In this document: piece after piece, positions 18,623-26,925 of the stretch | How positions within the stretch are numbered: the stretch's first letter is position 1 | Layout: each line of letters opens with the position of its first letter | Origin: an uncultured delta proteobacterium | GTDB taxonomy: Bacteria; Desulfobacterota; Binatia; UBA9968 | DNA: 64,000 nucleotides | NCBI GenBank assembly: GCA_963745035.1 | Contig: CAVUVW010000013.1 | Coordinates: 992,001 to 1,056,000 of the forward strand | Direction: 5' to 3' | Made by a program: the position numbers and the translations under genes | The notes under the pieces: model-generated | Database searches by the model: none | What the model was told of the DNA's origin: nothing | The model's input: only the letters and a program-made list of their open reading frames with translations

Positions 18623-19048
18623 ATGAGTGCCGCGCCTGCGAAAATCGTCAACGTCACTTTCTACCGTGTCATCTACGGCGATACCGACCAGATGGGTGTG
18701 GTTTACTATGCGAATTATCTGCGCTGGTTCGAAAAGGGGCGGTCGGAATTTCTTCGCCAAATCGGCTTGCCGTATGCATCGATCGAACAGCAGGGCTTCA
18801 ATTTTCCTGTCGTGGAAGTGACCTGCCGCTATACGCAGTCGGCGCGCTACGATGATGTCGTGCGCATCGAAACGGAATTGGTCGAGCTGGGGCGCGCGTC
18901 GCTCTCATTTCAATATCGCATCATGCGCGATGCCGATGATTGCCTGCTCGCCAACGGATCGACCAAGCACGCGTGTCTCGACGGCGCCGGCCGGTTGAGC
19001 GGCGTCCCCAAAACCTTGCAAGCAGCGATCGCCGCAGCCGCGCGCTAG
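18623..19048 (+). CDS. YbgC/FadM-type hotdog acyl-CoA thioesterase
   Basis: YGDTDQMGVVYYANYLRWFEKGR. Confidence 0.92.
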   Translation: MSAAPAKIVNVTFYRVIYGDTDQMGVVYYANYLRWFEKGRSEFLRQIGLPYASIEQQGFNFPVVEVTCRYTQSARYDDVVRIETELVELGRASLSFQYRIMRDADDCLLANGSTKHACLDGAGRLSGVPKTLQAAIAAAAR

Positions 19049-20200
19049 TGGGCCGCAGTCCCTTCTTTGCTCTCCGCGCGCGAGCGCATCGGCGATCTCG
19101 GCGCGCACTTCGTCGTCGCTTTCGATAACCCGGCGCTTCTCCAACGCGCGCACCGCGGGCAGGGAGCCGATCTCACCCAGAGCCCAGGCAGCGTGGCCGC
19201 GCACCAATGGCTCTTCGTCGTCGAGCAGACGAATCAATTCAGGCACGGCTTCCAAAGATTTGAGATTCCCCAGAGCGACCGCGACATTGCGCAAAAAGCC
19301 GCGCCGCTTGGCGCGCAAGATCGGACTGCCTTTAAACCGCCGGCGAAATTCATCGCGATCGAGCGACAGCAGCGGGATCAGTTGCGGCGCGTGCAAGCCG
19401 GCGCGCGGCTGGTAGGCGTTCTCGGGACTCGCTTCCGCCTTCACGTTATACGGGCAGACTTCCTGGCAGATGTCGCAGCCGAAAACATGGTTGCCGATCA
19501 ACGGGCGCAGATGGCGCGGCATCCAGCCTTTGAGCTCGATGGTCAGATAGGAAATGCAGCGGCGCGCGTCGAGCACGTAGGGCCCGACAAAGGCGCCGGT
19601 CGGACAGGCTTTGAGACACAGCTCGCAGCGACCGCAGCGATCGCCGATCGGGCGGTCGTAGTCGAGCGGCAGGTCGAGAAACAACTCGCCCAGAAAAAAC
19701 CACGAGCCTTTTTTGGGAGAGATCAGATGGGTGTTCTTGCCGATCCAGCCGAGCCCGGCCACGCCGGCGATGTCTCTTTCCAGCACCGGACCGGAATCGA
19801 CGAAAACTCTGCCTTGCACGGGCGCGCCGTGTAGCTCGTTCACTCGATCCAGCAGCGCTTCGAGTTTCTCTCGCATCACGTCGTGATAATCGTCGCCCCA
19901 CGCGTAGCGCGATATCCAACCTTGGGCGTCGTCGACCGGCTCGGGACGCGGAAATTCGGTGTAATAATTCATACCCACGGAAATGACCGAAACCGCCCAG
20001 GGCACCAGCGCCCGCGGATCGCGCCGCGTGTCTTCGCTCCGCTTCATGTACTCCAATTCGCCCGCCATGCCTTGGCGCAGCCAGCGCGAGAACGACTCCG
20101 CGTGCGGCGGCGCGCCGACCGGCGAAATGCCCACTAGAAAAAACCCGAGTTGCTGCGCTGCTTCCTTGATGCGGGCCGATAGACTGAAACGGTCGTTCAT
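18905..20200 (-). CDS. queG: Epoxyqueuosine reductase with C-terminal HEAT repeats (true 3' end probably near 19045)
   Basis: SRYAWGDDYH, VDSGPVLER, CGRCELCLKACPT, CISYLTIE, GCDICQEVCP. Confidence 0.96.
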   Translation of the reverse strand: MNDRFSLSARIKEAAQQLGFFLVGISPVGAPPHAESFSRWLRQGMAGELEYMKRSEDTRRDPRALVPWAVSVISVGMNYYTEFPRPEPVDDAQGWISRYAWGDDYHDVMREKLEALLDRVNELHGAPVQGRVFVDSGPVLERDIAGVAGLGWIGKNTHLISPKKGSWFFLGELFLDLPLDYDRPIGDRCGRCELCLKACPTGAFVGPYVLDARRCISYLTIELKGWMPRHLRPLIGNHVFGCDICQEVCPYNVKAEASPENAYQPRAGLHAPQLIPLLSLDRDEFRRRFKGSPILRAKRRGFLRNVAVALGNLKSLEAVPELIRLLDDEEPLVRGHAAWALGEIGSLPAVRALEKRRVIESDDEVRAEIADALARGEQRRDCGPLARGCGDRCLQGFGDAAQPAGAVETRVLGRSVGEQAIIGIAHDAILK

Positions 20201-20261
20201 GAGGAAAATCTACTTGGGGTGCGCCTGAAGCGCGGGAATAGACGAGATCTTCGCGAGCCGA

Positions 20262-20712
20262 TCAGTGGTACGAAGTTTCGTCTTCCGGGTCGGCATCGCC
20301 ATCGTCGAGCAGCGGCTTGCGCCCGGCGAAACCATCCTCGATTCCATGCCAGAAGCCGACGTTCGGTTCGCCGAGCTGCCAGCAAAGAAACACCACCTCG
20401 GCGCCGAGCATGCACGGAAAGTCGATCAGTCCCTGCTCCACGCCCTTGCACACGCAGCCGTGGGCGTTGATTTCCTCGACCCAGCTCTGTACCTGGCCGA
20501 TGAGCTTGGCGATCTCGGCATCGTCGGCGCAGATGTTCCATCAGATCGGGCGCGTCGGCGTCGAGCTGTTCCCTGCGAATCACGGTTTCGCTGGCGCTCT
20601 TCAGGCGCCGGATATTCTCCAGAATCTGTTCCACCAACGGCCGCAGCTTGGGCAGCAGCTCGTTGGCTTCATTGACCGTAAACAAGCGGGAATAGTTTCC
20701 CGTCGAATCCAT
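20262..20712 (-). CDS. DUF2203 family protein (frameshift near 20530)
   Basis: LFTVNEANELLP; then GLIDFP..VFLCWQLGE..WHGIEDGFAGRKPL. Confidence 0.85.
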
Positions 20713-20752
20713 GAGTTTTATTCCACGACGTTTTCCACGCGCACGACAGCGG

Positions 20753-22048
20753 TTAGAGATTCATGCCGCTGCGAATTTGCCGGAGCAAAGCGATGTTGTC
20801 CGAGTGGCCGGTCATCGACGCGGAGATCGCGCCGCGGATCGGCCGCCCGAGCAGATAGAAATCGCCGAGAATGTCGAGAATCTTGTGGCGCGCGAATTCG
20901 TTGGGATAGCGCAAATCGGTGTTGATGATCTTGTCGTCGCCGATGATGATGCAGTTGTTGAGCTTGCCGCCGCCGGCGAGGCCCATGGTTTGGAGCTTCT
21001 CGATATCGCGGAGAAACCCGAAGGTGCGCGCCGGCGCGATCTCGTTTTTGAAAAACTCCGGCCCGCCGTACACGTAGGTATGTTCCTGCTCGCCCACCGG
21101 CTCCGGATAGCGCAGCCGATAATGAACCGACAACGATTCCGCCGGAGTGATGCTGATCGACTCGCCGTCTTTCGCCTCGATCCGGTATTGCCGGTCGATG
21201 ACGATCTCCGAAGAATCTTCGACCTGCTCCTCGACGCCGGCTTCCTCGATGGCCTGGCAGAACTCCACGGCGGAGCCGTCCATGATCGGCACCTCGCCCT
21301 GCACCTTGACGAGGAGATTGGTGATGCCGTAGCTGTGCATCACCGCGAGGAAATGCTCGACGGTGCCGATGGCAAAGCCCTTGGAGCGAAGCGAGGTCGC
21401 ATAGCCGGTGGAGCCGACATAGTCGAGATGGGCCGGCAACGTGACGTCGCCGGAGATTCCCGCGAATAGGATGCCGCGGTTGGCCGGCAGCGGGTGAAGA
21501 ATCAACCCGGTCTTCACTCCCGAGTGCAGTCCCTGCCCCGAGAGCACCACGCTTTTTTGCAGCGTCTTCTGCTTACGCGTTTGCAGCGCGTCGCCGTTTT
21601 TCAACGCGGCCGCCGACTTGGCGGCGCGCGCTTTGTGCGCGCCGGCGGCGGATTTCTGCGCGCCGCTTGCCGCCTCGCCGAGCGCGCGCTGCACCGTCAG
21701 CAGCAATCCATCCAAGGTAACCGGCTTCTCGATGAAGTCGAAGGCGCCGAACTTGGTCGCAGTGACGGCGGTGTGAATATTGCCGTGGCCGGAAACCATC
21801 ACCACGGGAATGTCCGGCTCCTGGCTCTTGATCTCTTTCAGTAAACCGATGCCGTCGACCTGGGGCATCCAGATATCGAGCAGCACCAGCTCGGGCTTCT
21901 CCTCCCGGATCATCCTGAGAACCTGAGTGCCGTCCGCAGTGTCGAGCACGCGGTAGCCCTCGTCGGTCAATACCTCGCGCACCGACTCGCGCACGCCGTC
22001 CTCGTCGTCGACGATGAGAATAGTTTTCTGGTTGGCTGACTCTTCCAC
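20753..22048 (-). CDS. lpxC: Fusion of NtrX-type receiver domain and UDP-3-O-acyl-GlcNAc deacetylase LpxC
   Basis: REC: ILIVDDE, LLDIWMP, SGHGNI, FIEKP. LpxC: KQKTL..GQGLHSG, TVEH, EVPIMDGSA, ARTFGF, HKILD, GH. One uninterrupted frame; GTG start after AGGAGG. Confidence 0.93.
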   Translation of the reverse strand: MEESANQKTILIVDDEDGVRESVREVLTDEGYRVLDTADGTQVLRMIREEKPELVLLDIWMPQVDGIGLLKEIKSQEPDIPVVMVSGHGNIHTAVTATKFGAFDFIEKPVTLDGLLLTVQRALGEAASGAQKSAAGAHKARAAKSAAALKNGDALQTRKQKTLQKSVVLSGQGLHSGVKTGLILHPLPANRGILFAGISGDVTLPAHLDYVGSTGYATSLRSKGFAIGTVEHFLAVMHSYGITNLLVKVQGEVPIMDGSAVEFCQAIEEAGVEEQVEDSSEIVIDRQYRIEAKDGESISITPAESLSVHYRLRYPEPVGEQEHTYVYGGPEFFKNEIAPARTFGFLRDIEKLQTMGLAGGGKLNNCIIIGDDKIINTDLRYPNEFARHKILDILGDFYLLGRPIRGAISASMTGHSDNIALLRQIRSGMNL

Positions 22049-22069
22049 TCGCCCCTCCTGCAAAACCTG

Positions 22070-24301
22070 CTAAGAATAGACCGCCCGTTTGGCGGCGTCC
22101 TCCGCCGCAGCGGTGGCGCTCACGGGAAACTCGATGATAAAGCGGGTTCCCTTCGGTTCGTTGGGCCATGCGCGGATATAGCCGCGGTGGTCTTCGACGA
22201 TTTGGCTCACGATAGTCAATCCCAAACCGGTGCCGTTCTCCTTGGTGGAGAAATACGGCTCGAAGATTTTCGTGCGGATTTCCGCCGGCAGCCCGCAGCC
22301 GTTGTCGGCGACCTCCAAAGTCACCACGCCGCGCGCCGGATCGTGGATCGTCGCCAGCCTGACTTCGCCCTCGCCTTCCACCGCCGCCACCGCATTATCG
22401 AGGAGATTGATCAGCATGCGGTTGATCTGCTCGCGGTCGAGATCCAGAGCCGGAATCACGCCGCCGCGAAAATGAAAATGAATTCCAAGATGGCCTTCCT
22501 TGAACAAAACCAGCGCCTCGCCGACGACCTGGTTGAGATCGGCCGGGGCGAGCCGGGCCGAAGGCAGGCGCGCGAATTGAGAGAACTCGTTGACGAGGTT
22601 CTTGAGCTCGACGACCTGCTGGATGATCGTGCTCGTGCACTTGTCGAGAATCGCGCCGTCGCCTTCGAGCATTTTGGCGTAGCGTTTGCGCAGCCGCTCC
22701 GCTGAAAGTTGAATCGGCGTGAGCGGATTTTTGATTTCATGCGCGATTCGGCGCGCGACTTCGCGCCATGCCTCCATGCGCTGTACCTGCTGGATCTGGG
22801 TAATGTCCTCGAGAAACAGCATCACGCCCAAAATCGAACCGTCGTCGTCGCGCAAAGTCGCCGCGTTGACCATCACCGTCAACAGACGATCGCTGAGCGA
22901 AAGGCGGATCTCGCGCTCGACGCTCTCGCGCCCCATGACGCTGTCGAGTATGGCGCGCAGCTCGGCCAGAGCTTCGGTATGAAAAACTTCCTGGTAGTTT
23001 CTTCCGACCGCGCGGTCGGCCGCGACCGCGAGGATCTTCTCCGCGGCCTTGTTCCAGGTGGTGATCTTTCCTGCCGGATCCACCGACACCACGCCCGCGG
23101 CGATGTTCGCCAGCAAGGTCTCCACCACCGTGCCGCGGCGCTCGAGCTCGAGCTTGATCTGCTTTAAATCGCCGGTCATCTGGTTGAAGGAATTCATCAG
23201 CACGCCGATTTCATCGTCGCCGCCGGCCTCGATGCGGTAGTCCCAATTGCCCTGAGCCACCTCGTGGGTGCCTTCGGCGAGCTTTTGAATCGGCACGGTA
23301 ATGCTCCGGGAAATATACATGCCGCACCAGGTCGCGGCGAAAATCACCACCAACGTGATCAGCAGCAAAGTCAGAAGATAGCTGTTTTTCACCGGCGTCT
23401 TTAAAAACGTCAGATACTTGTACTGCTCGTAGGATTGGGAAATTTCCACGGCGCGCTTGGAAATGCTCTTGGGCACGTAATAATCGACCACCACTACGCC
23501 GCGAATGCGCCGGTCCGAGCTGTAAAGCGGCACGCCGCCGCGGATCACGTCGGCGTCGCCCAGGATTTCCGTGCGCGTCACTTCGAGACCGCGCAAAGCG
23601 CGCTGCAGAAACTCTCCCTCCACTTTGACCACTCCGCCCGTCGGCACCTGCTCGTTGACCGCGACGATCAGCGGCTCGCCGTCGGGCGCGATGATTTCCA
23701 CGGTGCCGAGGTTGTACTCGCGCTGCTTCATCTGCACGAAAGCCTTGAGGTCCGCGGCGTTCTGCTTGTCGGCCAAGCCCTCGGCGGTGAGCCGCTGGCT
23801 CAATTGGCGAGCGTAGAAAATCGCGTTGTTCGCCGAATTTTGATAGTAGGTTTGGCCGATTTCCAAGGAGCCCTGCAGCGCGCTGTCGACTTTGGAATCG
23901 AACCAGCGGTCGAAGGAGCGGGTCAAAAGCCCGCCGGCGATCGTGAACAGCAGCACGCTCGGTACCAGCGACAGCGACACGAAGGCCAGCACGAGGCGCC
24001 CCTGGAGGCGCGAGCCGAGAATCCGCCGACGCCGCTCGACGATCAGCTTGATCAGATTGCGCACCACCAGAAACACCAGCAGCCCGAGCAGGATGATGTT
24101 GACGTTGATCAGGAGAAAAAAAACGATGTTGCTGGCAATGGACGATTCCGCCGAGACGTCGGGCAGCTGCACTTCGAAATAGACCAGCGCCGCGACCATC
24201 AGCGCGGTGATCAGAATGACGATCCCTTCACGCTTGCGGCGCTTGGTTTCCTCGCGCTTGAGAGTTTCCGCGCGAGAGATCGCGGGACTGGCGGCTTCCA
24301 T
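22070..24301 (-). CDS. ntrY: NtrY-like sensor histidine kinase (TM, periplasmic, HAMP, PAS, HisKA, HATPase)
   Basis: [53 protein letters not shown]. Confidence 0.92.
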
Positions 24302-24345
24302 CGGGCTCTACCCGGGACTAAGCGCCCGGAAGATTAACGAAAAGA

Positions 24346-24558
24346 TTACCTTCTAAAGAAATAAAGGACAAGCGAGATGAGCACGCTGATGAGAATGCAG
24401 GTGGTGATCGGAAAATAGAATGAAAAGCGCTCGCGCTGGATCGTTATGTCGCCGGGCAAATTTCCCAACCAGGGCAACTTGCCCGCAAACGATAACACCA
24501 CCCCGACGACCACGAGAATCAGTCCAAAAAAAACCAGTGTCTTGCCGAATTCCGACAT
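24346..24558 (-). CDS. DUF2905 family small membrane protein
   Basis: LGNLPGDI.I..F.FYFPITTCILIS. Confidence 0.88.
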   Translation of the reverse strand: MSEFGKTLVFFGLILVVVGVVLSFAGKLPWLGNLPGDITIQRERFSFYFPITTCILISVLISLVLYFFRR

Positions 24559-24592
24559 AGCGCACCGCCTTCATATCGGGCGTGCCCCGCGG

Positions 24593-25622
24593 TTAAAATA
24601 GCGAGGGTTGCTTCTTGGCGGCGCCGCCGCTAGCCAGGGCGCTCTGTTCCCGGCCGAAATGATCGAACGCCAGGACGGTGGCGACCCGGCCGCGCGGCGT
24701 GCGTTGGACAAAGCCCGCCTGGATCAGAAACGGCTCATAGACGTCCTCGATGGTGTCTTTCTCCTCGCCGATGGCCGCCGCCAGGGTTTCGACACCCACG
24801 GGACCGCCGCCAAACTTGTCAATCAGCGTAAGCAGCAGCATGGTATCCATCTTGTCCAGCCCCAGCCGATCGACTTCGAGCATCTTGAGCGCCTCGTCGG
24901 TGATCGACTTCGTGATCATGCCGTCGCCTTTGACCTGCGCGTAGTCGCGCACCCGGCGCAGCAAGCGATTGGCGATGCGCGGCGTGCCGCGCGAGCGCGC
25001 GGCAATCTCGGCAATGCCGTCGCTCTGCTTCGCGCACGCCGAGGATCGCCGCCGAGCGCTTGAGGATGCGCGCCAGCGCCGCGGTGTCGTAGAAATCCAA
25101 ACGGTGAATATGGCCGAACCGATCGCGCAGCGGCGACGTCAACAGGCCCGAACGGGTAGTGGCGCCGATCAGCGTGAAGCGCTTCAGATCGAGCTTGATC
25201 GATCGCGCCGACGGGCCCTGACCGATCATGATGTCGATCTGATAGTCTTCCATCGCCGGATAGAGCACTTCCTCGACGATGTGATTCAGGCGATGAATTT
25301 CGTCGATGAAAAGCACGTCGCCTTGCTCGAGGTTGGTCAGCAGCGCGGCGAGATCGCCGGGCCGCTCCACCACCGGCCCCGAAGTCGCCCTGATGTTGAC
25401 GCCCATTTCCCGGGCGATGATGTAGGCGAGCGAGGTCTTGCCCAATCCCGGCGGGCCATGAAACAGCATATGATCGAGGACGTCGCCGCGCCCGCGCGCT
25501 GCCGCGATCGCCACCCGCAGATTGGCCTTGACCTGCTCCTGGCCGACGTATTCGTCGAAGCCGCGCGGCCGTAGATTGACCTCGTAGTTCAGGTCTTCGT
25601 CGTTTTTGTCAGCGCTTAGCAT
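24593..25622 (-). CDS. ruvB: Holliday junction helicase RuvB (frameshift near 25040)
   Basis: [23 protein letters not shown]; GGPVG and [14 protein letters not shown] in second frame. Confidence 0.96.
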
Positions 25623-25717: not shown

Positions 25718-26307
25718 TCAGCTCATGCGCCGGAGCGTTTCCTTGATCACGTCCTCCAATGAGCGTTCGCCTTTCTTGAGCACCTCGCGAACCAGTTTTT
25801 CCGCCTCGGGTCTTTTATATCCCAGATTGACCAAAGCGCGAAACCGCGTCGAGCAAAAGTTGCGATCCACCGTCGGTCTTGGCGCTTTCCTGCCCGGGCG
25901 GCGCCAGAGTGGCGAACTTGTCCTTCAACTCGACGATCATCCGCTCGGCGAGTTTTCTGCCCACTCCGGGAATCGCGACCAGACGCACTTGGTCGGCTTC
26001 CTTCAACGCGCGCGCCAACTCGTCGGCCGCGATGCCGGAAAGAATGTTGATGGCGAGCTTGGGTCCGATTCCCGAGACGCCGATCAGCAGCAAGAAGAGC
26101 TGTTTTTCTTCCGGATCTTGAAAACCGAAAAGCTGAAGCGCGTCCTCGCGAACGTGGGTGTGGATTTGCAAGCTCACCGCAGCGCCGATTTCCGGCAGGC
26201 GATAAAAGACATTGAGCGGAATAAAGATCTGATAGCCGACTCCGCCAACGTCGACCACCGCCTCGCCGGGCATCTTTTGCGCTAGAGTTCCGCTGATTGG
26301 CGATCAG
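25718..26307 (-). CDS. ruvA: Holliday junction DNA-binding protein RuvA (frameshifts near both ends)
   Basis: VGGVGY, HVREDA..LFGF, VSGIGPK, IPGVGRKLAER. Confidence 0.93.
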
Positions 26308-26925
26308 TCGCTAATCACAAGAGGCCGGCTCCAGCGCTTGGCGGCAAGCTCGACGCAGTCGCGCCAGCTCGTCCGGCCGGAGGCTCCGTTGCGCGACGGC
26401 GCCAACGTAATTTGGAAAGTCTCGCGATGAACGTGACAGATCGCCGCCGCCAGCGCATCGGCGGCGTCCGCGCGCATGGCGCCACGCACGAGGAGCAATG
26501 CGCCGACCATTTTTTGCACCTGCTCCTTGGTCGCGCGGCCGTAGCCGACCACCGCGACTTTGATTTCCGCCGCCGAATACTCGGCGATATGCAGCCGATG
26601 CTCTGCCGCCGCCAACAAAGCGACGCCGCGCGCTTGCCCGAGCTTCAGCGCGCTTTGCGCATTGCGCGAGAAGAATACCTTTTCCAAACTGACGGCAGTC
26701 GGACGACAATCTTCGATGATTTCGTGGAGCCCGCGGTAGATGTGGCTCAAGCGCTCGGCCAGCCCGAGTGCGGCGGATGTGGCGATGATTCCGTGCGAGC
26801 GGCAGCGCAGTTTGATTGGCTTCCACTTCGACGATTCCCCAGCCGGTCACAAGCGAACCGGGGTCGATGCCAAGAATGATTTCCCGACCGAGCCGCCTGG
26901 CGCTGCTCTTGAGCGTCGGCGCCAC
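26304..26925 (-). CDS. ruvC: Crossover junction endodeoxyribonuclease RuvC (frameshift near 26800)
   Basis: ILGIDPGS..TGWG; EKVFF, KLGQARG, DAADALAAAICH. Confidence 0.93.

Follow-up and report, generated by a model that had tools for sequence, protein, structure and literature searches.

The window analysed here, a stretch of 64,000 nucleotides, comes from a soil bacterium, an uncultured delta proteobacterium (GTDB lineage Bacteria; Desulfobacterota; Binatia; UBA9968) and covers positions 992,001 to 1,056,000 of the forward strand of contig CAVUVW010000013.1 in assembly GCA_963745035.1. [quoted passage not shown] Since the 21-nt spacer between the two genes, read directly from the sequence, holds no convincing terminator, ntrY and the fusion gene are probably co-transcribed. 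A scan of 20000-24800 for promoters and terminators gave weak consensus matches only, and a metatranscriptome run (X15) yielded short contigs on parts of both genes, one of them across the linker, in which DNA carry-over is possible and which cannot show transcript level, strand or a single transcript. Residues are numbered here from the TTG at 22063, where the open reading frame (ORF) track begins, and the acceptor Asp is hence called D63; the product of the more probable GTG start is near the size of most close homologues (427-434 aa), which align from residue 4.

Table 1. Features of the ntrY and lpxC fusion locus; positions count from the first letter of the window (pLDDT, predicted local distance difference test)
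Feature	Position	Strand	Remarks
ntrY-type sensor histidine kinase gene	22070..24301	-	743 aa; TAG stop 22070-22072
Spacer of 21 nt, ntrY stop to probable GTG	22049..22069	-	AGGAGG at 22054-22059, read from sequence
REC-linker-LpxC gene	20753..22063	-	one open frame, 436 aa from TTG 22063; stop codon 20753-20755
Probable start of fusion gene (GTG)	22046..22048	-	431-aa product
Receiver (REC), NtrX type	21692..22021	-	residues 15-124, Pfam
Phospho-acceptor Asp codon	21875..21877	-	D63 by ORF numbering, D58 from GTG start
Ala/Lys-rich linker	21584..21670	-	residues 132-160 (~30 aa), predicted disordered, pLDDT <50
LpxC deacetylase domain	20774..21571	-	residues 165-430
E236-H237 (TVEH), general base and first Zn ligand	21353..21358	-	alignment to P. 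aeruginosa LpxC
H393, K394, D397, D401 (HKILDILGD), Zn ligands and catalytic Lys/Asp	20861..20887	-	
H420 (TGHS), catalytic His	20804..20806	-	alignment to P. aeruginosa LpxC
DUF2203 gene, directly downstream of fusion gene	20197..20712	-	frameshifted in this assembly
DUF2905 small membrane protein gene, between ruvB and ntrY	24346..24558	-	directly upstream of ntrY

In the fusion protein, Pfam places Response_reg at residues 15-124 (8.8e-32) and LpxC (PF03331) at residues 165-430 (1.5e-81; 274.3 bits, cut-off 27; 1-266 of the 268 profile positions covered), and the NCBIfam lpxC model TIGR00325 scores 242.8 bits against its cut-off of 187.25. The best NCBIfam match of the receiver is NtrX (NF051870), at 143.1 bits against 600 and over profile positions 3-151 of 452 only. 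As Pfam finds neither an AAA+ nor a helix-turn-helix (HTH) domain, the protein is, by its sequence, NtrX-derived but not an NtrX. The receiver motifs are present, namely DD (19-20), D63 in LLDIWMP, SGHG (91-94) and KP (113-114), as are the LpxC motifs TVEH, HKILD and GH, and residues E236, H237, T347, H393, K394, D397, D401 and H420 align to the catalytic and Zn-binding residues of Pseudomonas aeruginosa LpxC. We take their Escherichia coli counterparts to be H79, H238 and D242 for the Zn ligands and E78, H265, T191, K239 and D246 for the catalytic residues. The closest solved relatives of the receiver are chains 4d6x and 5m7n, presumably Brucella NtrX. The upstream kinase carries NtrY_N (PF19312, 41.3 bits against 23.2), HAMP, PAS, HisKA and HATPase_c domains (Pfam) and is 42-47% identical, over its full length, to kinases that stand beside a true NtrX in two other genomes (loci L032 and L033). 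A preliminary description of the locus had reported one uninterrupted ORF 21 bp after the stop of an NtrY-type kinase, made up of an NtrX-type receiver, a linker and a complete LpxC and devoid of AAA+ and HTH domains. The 21-nt gap holds with the GTG at 22048 behind AGGAGG, the coordinates and motifs were all correct, and the two missing domains are indeed absent by Pfam.

The fusion gene is the only match to PF03331 in this genome (7.43 Mb, 92.6% complete), in which lpxA and lpxB are also present, and the fusion protein is thus predicted to act as the deacetylase of the Raetz pathway. The NtrX model has 60 matches in the genome, none at the cut-off (best 402.5 against 600). Because no genomic NtrX reaches the cut-off, the NtrX-type receiver available to this NtrY appears limited to the one on LpxC. 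Taken with the domain content, this suggests an enzymatic response regulator composed of an NtrX-derived receiver, a flexible linker and the sole LpxC of the cell, with NtrY as its putative partner.

The continuity of the gene is supported by independent data. Contigs of public runs were compared over 20100-25100, with X1, X10 and X4 coming from three different DNA studies (X1 may be the sample behind this assembly) and X15 being the metatranscriptome. Contigs from all four span the linker without a gap (X1, 20719-22180; X10, 21008-22073; X4, 21273-21740; X15, 21467-21749), and no indel is listed within 20753-22063 in any of them; other listed indels lie at 22072 (3 nt, low depth, at the ntrY stop) and 23543 (RNA contig, low depth). 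All 120 closest homologue clusters combine PF00072 with PF03331, at 75-97% identity and a length of 415-449 aa. Among 40 genomes of the same order, the full-length fusion (query residues 2-13 to 430-436) is found in 33, one of which (G005, locus L003) is flagged as unpublished (32 of 39 without it), and five genomes with the fusion are single contigs (G025, G026, G028, G037 and G038). The match is cut by contig ends in 6 of the 40. The remaining one, G019, a genome of the same genus that is 91% complete, gave no LpxC match by protein query or by PF03331, probably owing to an assembly gap.

The pairing with ntrY is equally persistent within the class. The kinase gene lies directly upstream of the fusion in 12 of 12 loci of the same genus (this locus included), in all 11 testable loci elsewhere in the order (L126 stops at a contig edge) and, for other orders of the class, in 4 of 4, which makes 27 of 27 testable loci for the class as a whole. 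From this adjacency we infer that NtrY may phosphorylate the receiver.

Across the phylum, the family was followed in an evenly drawn sample of 150 further genomes (E<=1e-40). A full-length short fusion, that is, receiver, linker and LpxC, occurs in 17 of them (42-56% identity), and 17 more have the LpxC part at 45-61% identity, in frames of 690-837 aa (11 genomes) or 450-497 aa (6 genomes); 107 have a standard LpxC only (34-43% identity) and 9 have no match. Of the 34 fusion-bearing genomes of this sample, which belong to Binatia-like soil bacteria, 33 show no second LpxC match. Two genomes carry an LpxC in addition to the fused one. In G074 (C11:39479-40309 and C33:20147-20956), counted among the 17 with the short fusion, it is a standard 330-aa frame; in G036 (C40 and C28) it is a partial copy, 45% identical, at the end of a contig and may be contamination. 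A scan of 1.84 billion representatives gave 2028 proteins at E<=1e-30; among the 150 representatives listed, 63 combine a receiver with LpxC, 15 of these with an AAA+ domain in between, and the others are 6 proteins with AAA+ and LpxC (N-terminus cut), 74 with LpxC only and 7 with receivers only. Source labels of family members include Nitrospinota, Deltaproteobacteria and Candidatus Entotheonellia metagenome-assembled genomes (MAGs). At 77-84% identity, several homologous MAG proteins are named 'Candidatus Binatia' by NCBI, and labels of Verrucomicrobiae and Phototrophicaceae also occur. A search of genome contigs for the locus, in which the best 80 of at least 602 stretches were mostly ordinary LpxC genes and which is no measure of taxonomic range, contributed two short forms (L042 and L045) and two long forms (L043 and L044). 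As a separate curiosity of receiver architecture, P0192, P0194, P0207, P0234 and P0265 carry three to five NtrX-like receiver domains in tandem.

The long forms bear on the origin of the short ones. In the 27 representatives checked by Pfam, the long architecture reads Response_reg, Sigma54_activat, AAA_lid_14 and LpxC (650-736 aa), with HTH_8 in addition in P0125; proteins of this REC-AAA+-(HTH)-LpxC type, including long forms within P0122-P0148 and those at L023 6668-9055 (+) and L027 6070-8127 (-), measure 650-795 aa, and one is named 'NtrX' by the Joint Genome Institute (JGI). By their domain order, the long forms are whole NtrX proteins fused to LpxC. P0131 (491 aa), with Response_reg, HTH_8 and LpxC, has an HTH domain and LpxC behind its receiver, and a Fis-type HTH remnant persists in the linkers of P0131 and P0124. 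Of the 7 long-form loci that could be tested, 5 have ntrY immediately upstream (L024, L025, L026, L043 and L044) and 2 do not (L023 and L027). The AAA+ module of the long forms bears signs of decay: the GAFTGA loop and the Walker B Asp-Glu pair are both absent from all 17 long forms compared, and Walker A (GxxGxGK) is kept in 15 of 17.

The LpxC tree (quick IQ-TREE) comprised 106 domains, namely this protein and 105 listed representatives with one near-complete LpxC, with 45 fragments or proteins without LpxC left out. All fused forms fall into one clade on a long stem (0.71; Shimodaira-Hasegawa-like approximate likelihood ratio (SH-aLRT) support 99). The clade also takes in 5 rows with LpxC alone, perhaps gene calls that were cut short. 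Within it, short forms stand beside long ones at several places: P0131 with P0136 (100), P0141 with P0148 and P0126, and P0124 with P0125. A tree of receiver domains repeats the first two groupings (P0131/P0136, 99; P0126/P0141/P0148, 95) and does not pair P0124 with P0125. A topology that puts 20 AAA+-bearing and 24 short rows on separate sides was rejected (difference in log-likelihood 275; approximately unbiased test, p-AU 1.7e-62), in a test whose groups were set by architecture but which was chosen after the tree had been seen. Read most simply, these results mean that the AAA+ module was lost more than once; the tree is unrooted within the clade and by itself does not separate loss from gain. 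Fused receivers group with the receivers of unfused NtrX, apart from 6 of 7 other enhancer-binding proteins of the genome analysed here (98).

Unfused relatives within the phylum may reflect the state that preceded the fusion. In G094 and G115 (L032 5085-10109 (-) and L033 5044-9935 (-)), lpxC, ntrY and ntrX lie on one strand, in L032 with a DUF4390 gene between lpxC and ntrY and with reading frames that overlap by 4 nt. In the genome analysed here, DUF4390 (PF14334) has no match, by a profile that matched 0 of 14 controls and so does not demonstrate absence. These two unfused NtrX proteins keep GAFTGA, Walker A and Walker B, and because GAFTGA and Walker B are kept, each looks like a working sigma-54 activator. 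Collectively, these observations indicate that the fusion descends from a whole NtrX (REC-AAA+-HTH) joined to LpxC, the transcription module of which later decayed and, on the simplest reading, was lost, and that NtrYX was already tied to lpxC by a shared operon before the fusion took place. This tie was presumably one of transcriptional control. The preliminary description had not seen this descent. All of its parts that are open to a check in silico are borne out. It had named relatives with separate ntrX and lpxC genes as evidence to the contrary; separate genes do exist, in distant members of the phylum only, and there lpxC shares the ntrYX operon, which strengthens the link between the two rather than weakening it.

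Selection appears to act on the two ends of the protein. In a set of 37 full-length fusions (this protein and 36 representatives, of which 15 are long and 21 are short, sharing 32-66% identity with it), D19 is Asp in 34 and Glu in 3, D20 is kept in 36, the acceptor D63 is Asp in 35 and replaced by Asn and by Ser in one protein each, S91 is Ser in 35 with Thr in the other 2, and K113 is retained in 36. On the LpxC side, E236, H237, F348, H393, K394, D397, D401 and H420 are kept in all 37 and T347 in 36. As judged from these alignments, the receiver and LpxC ends are under selection and the middle is not. A further group of residues, G186, Y245, K253 (Glu/Asp in standard LpxC), C269 and L373, is kept in 86-98% of 44 LpxC domains of the fused clade and in at most 7% of 57 standard ones; these residues form a candidate clade-specific surface, which could mark the site of receiver docking.

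Structure models are consistent with two folded domains and a disordered linker. An AlphaFold2 model of the fusion (83-row alignment; mean pLDDT 86.1; predicted template modelling score, pTM, 0.83) has a canonical five-stranded receiver (14-127), a disordered segment (132-160) and an LpxC fold (163-436, mostly above pLDDT 85). In Foldseek, the model matches solved LpxC chains with a root-mean-square deviation (rmsd) of 1.3-2.1 Å and a template modelling (TM) score, normalized to the target, of 0.84-0.95, and no listed chain spans beyond the LpxC part (query-normalized TM at most 0.60). The long form P0123 (22-row alignment) folds domain by domain, with pLDDT 80, three helices at the place of the HTH and pTM 0.47.

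From the descent and the conserved pairing with ntrY, we lean, mildly, towards the view that direct control has taken the place of transcriptional control of lpxC, with NtrY phosphorylating the receiver Asp and thereby setting LpxC output. NtrY would sense an envelope or redox cue and phosphorylate D63 of the receiver on LpxC, and the state of the receiver would set the level of LpxC activity and hence the flux into lipid A. The mechanism that we prefer is a CheB-like gate, in which the receiver would pack on LpxC in one state and be released in the other, possibly through receiver dimerization; alternatively, a phosphorylation-driven change of oligomeric state may alter access to the active site. 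The higher pTM of the short form (0.83, against 0.47 for the long form) is a weak hint that the receiver may be placed on LpxC. The fuller scenario, which we advance tentatively as a serious possibility, is that a sigma-54 activator of lpxC was fused to its own target, that its ATPase and DNA-binding parts decayed and that the circuit became post-translational, so that NtrY would now gate the only LpxC of the cell directly, in place of FtsH/LapB or transcriptional control. The sign of the regulation cannot be derived from these data, because NtrYX lowers lpxC transcription in Rhodobacter sphaeroides and Caulobacter crescentus (PMC7240162, PMC12444477), yet the intact GAFTGA of the unfused relatives suggests activation.

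Several observations weigh against such direct control. Phosphotransfer and its effect on LpxC are read from sequence and context. In other classes of the phylum, ntrY is upstream of the fusion in none of 12 testable short forms, none of 3 forms of middle size and neither of 2 named MAGs (L042 and L045); all 5 of the genomes without an adjacent ntrY that were tested encode an NtrY homologue elsewhere, with full-length identity of 31-45%. The acceptor Asp is lost in 2 of the 37 fusions, and LpxC therefore works without phosphorylation in at least some lineages. The linker of short forms varies from 20 to 110 aa and has no conserved sequence, so that any coupling cannot run through the linker itself. 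Because LpxC is present in one copy, the low state must keep basal activity, and the switch cannot be a simple off state. The hint from pTM cannot be turned into an interface. A complex prediction between LpxC (160-436) and the receiver (6-135) scored 0.01 against a mark of 0.32, with controls that were not folded, and speaks neither for nor against binding.

Among other explanations, the one that survives best, although we regard it as unlikely, is that phosphorylation governs stability rather than catalytic rate: the receiver would be a regulated degron or adaptor site through which NtrY sets the half-life of LpxC with respect to FtsH, Lon or Clp. The fusion protein ends soon after the LpxC core, the FtsH degron of E. 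coli LpxC being its C-terminal tail, and receivers that steer proteolysis are known, as in RssB and CpdR. The only LapB-type Zn-ribbon match in the genome (PF18073) falls on the Zn ribbon at the N-terminus of a RadA-like protein, but the profile is non-specific (10 of 14 controls matched, including Gram-positives) and LapB is not excluded by it. According to a review, proteolysis controls LpxC levels in E. coli, and Lon possibly does so in some alphaproteobacteria (PMC12444477). Nevertheless, the sequence holds no pointer to a protease, and control through a degron would not require a fusion.

Still less probable is tethering without catalytic control, by which the receiver would dock on membrane-bound NtrY or dimerize and so determine the place, stoichiometry or co-expression of LpxC, phosphorylation doing nothing but move the enzyme. 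A flexible, hypervariable linker would suit a leash, NtrY is a membrane protein (NtrY_N), and a LapB homologue has been proposed to place LpxC at the membrane in Neisseria meningitidis, according to the same review (PMC12444477). However, many lineages in which the fused gene no longer adjoins ntrY still keep the phospho-site residues, and one kinase dimer cannot hold the pool of a housekeeping enzyme. A vestigial receiver, a frozen accident that no longer signals while LpxC is regulated elsewhere or not at all, is very improbable: the AAA+ and HTH modules did decay after the fusion and the acceptor Asp is gone in the two fusions mentioned, but five residues of the phospho-chemistry are kept in 34-37 of 37 proteins at 32-66% identity while the adjoining AAA+ domain decayed, adjacency to ntrY is kept throughout the class, and the genome has no other NtrX-type partner for NtrY. 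Finally, that an indel or mis-join in an error-prone assembly joined a receiver gene to lpxC, for which the frameshifts in neighbouring ruvB, ruvC and DUF2203 and the differences of independent contigs at 20524, 20714 and 25028 might be cited, has a practically negligible probability and was rejected, being refuted by the four runs whose contigs list no indel in the gene, by the same architecture in the 120 closest homologue clusters and by the genomes of the order, single-contig ones included.

Some features of the surroundings deserve mention. The DUF2203 gene keeps its position downstream of the fusion in 12 of 12 loci of the same genus and in 4 of 12 loci from other genomes of the order, and the DUF2905 gene, which is found upstream of ntrY also in L123, L125, L134 and L016, could belong to the same unit as ntrY. 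Near the fusion gene, single-base indels at 20524 and 20714, in DUF2203, set an independent contig apart from the window, and the X10 contig lacks one base at 25028, in ruvB. The ruvB gene (24593-25622 (-)) is split over two frames, with RuvB_N in 24819-25622 and the lid and RuvB_C in 24593-24964; because the X10 contig is without the base at 25028, this split is probably due to an assembly indel error rather than to a pseudogene. The ruvC gene (26304-26925 (-)) and the DUF2203 gene are also divided between two frames. Several single-base indels within about 7 kb suggest an error-prone assembly, perhaps of long reads. Farther downstream, the queG ORF (18905-20200) extends 144 nt into a convergent thioesterase gene.

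A connection between NtrYX and lpxC has been described before at the level of transcription. Loss of ntrYX in R. sphaeroides raises lpxC mRNA 8.8-fold and increases lipopolysaccharide (LPS), with no NtrX site at lpxC (PMC7240162). For R. sphaeroides and C. crescentus, a 2025 review of lipid A regulation presents NtrYX only as a transcriptional, and not a specific, regulator of lpxC, and its main text nowhere uses the words 'receiver', 'fusion' or 'fused' (PMC12444477). In Desulfovibrio vulgaris, the DNA-binding response regulator DVU2934, whose operon also encodes a histidine kinase, targets lpxC alone and binds only upstream of it, and in Syntrophobacter fumaroxidans lpxC lies directly upstream of the orthologous operon (PMC3333781; for DVU2934 also PMC4114195 and bioRxiv 10.1101/2021.11.05.467447). 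As the latter arrangement matches that of L032 and L033, we infer by analogy that DVU2934 may be an NtrX-type regulator. No description of a receiver-LpxC protein was found in the Creative Commons (CC)-licensed PMC and bioRxiv literature, a scope outside which subscription journals lie. Enzymatic response regulators as such are already known, and the fusion proteins are public under automatic names ('UDP-3-O-acyl-N-acetylglucosamine deacetylase', 'NtrX'); what appears new with respect to the searchable literature is that LpxC carries a receiver, that this receiver is paired with NtrY and that it originates from NtrX. The family may serve as a natural 'Rosetta stone', giving independent support to the link from NtrYX to LpxC that was seen genetically in alphaproteobacteria and, for the putatively NtrX-like regulator, in Desulfovibrio, and it offers an unusually complete series of intermediates between transcriptional control and direct control of an enzyme. 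Its proteins are small and soluble.

Compared with the NtrY/NtrX systems of Brucella, Caulobacter and Rhodobacter, the fusion system has the same type of kinase, the same type of receiver and the same pathway, but the output of NtrX is its AAA+ and HTH domains, whereas here the regulated enzyme would itself be the output domain. In layout, with its receiver at the N-terminus, its enzyme at the C-terminus and a flexible linker in between, the protein resembles CheB and other enzymatic response regulators (PleD, WspR, RpfG, RssB). The receiver of CheB obstructs the active site as long as it is unphosphorylated. CheB is, however, a signalling enzyme with an unrelated output, while a Zn-dependent deacetylase from an essential biosynthetic pathway is the predicted output here, and the interface between receiver and LpxC is a proposal. 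The other widespread fusion of LpxC, with FabZ (LpxC-FabA domain; P0214, P0215, P0229), is C-terminal, unites two enzymes with a common substrate pool rather than serving signalling and lies outside the fused REC clade; in a preprint on domain combinations, LpxC-FabA fusions are the only LpxC fusions mentioned (bioRxiv 10.1101/2025.10.16.682753). How flux into lipid A is controlled is a long-standing question that has been answered in detail for few proteobacteria only, by proteolysis or a partner protein acting on a stand-alone LpxC, as with FtsH/LapB/YejM in E. coli and MurA in P. aeruginosa; the fusion family would offer a different solution, a phospho-receiver built into the enzyme itself.

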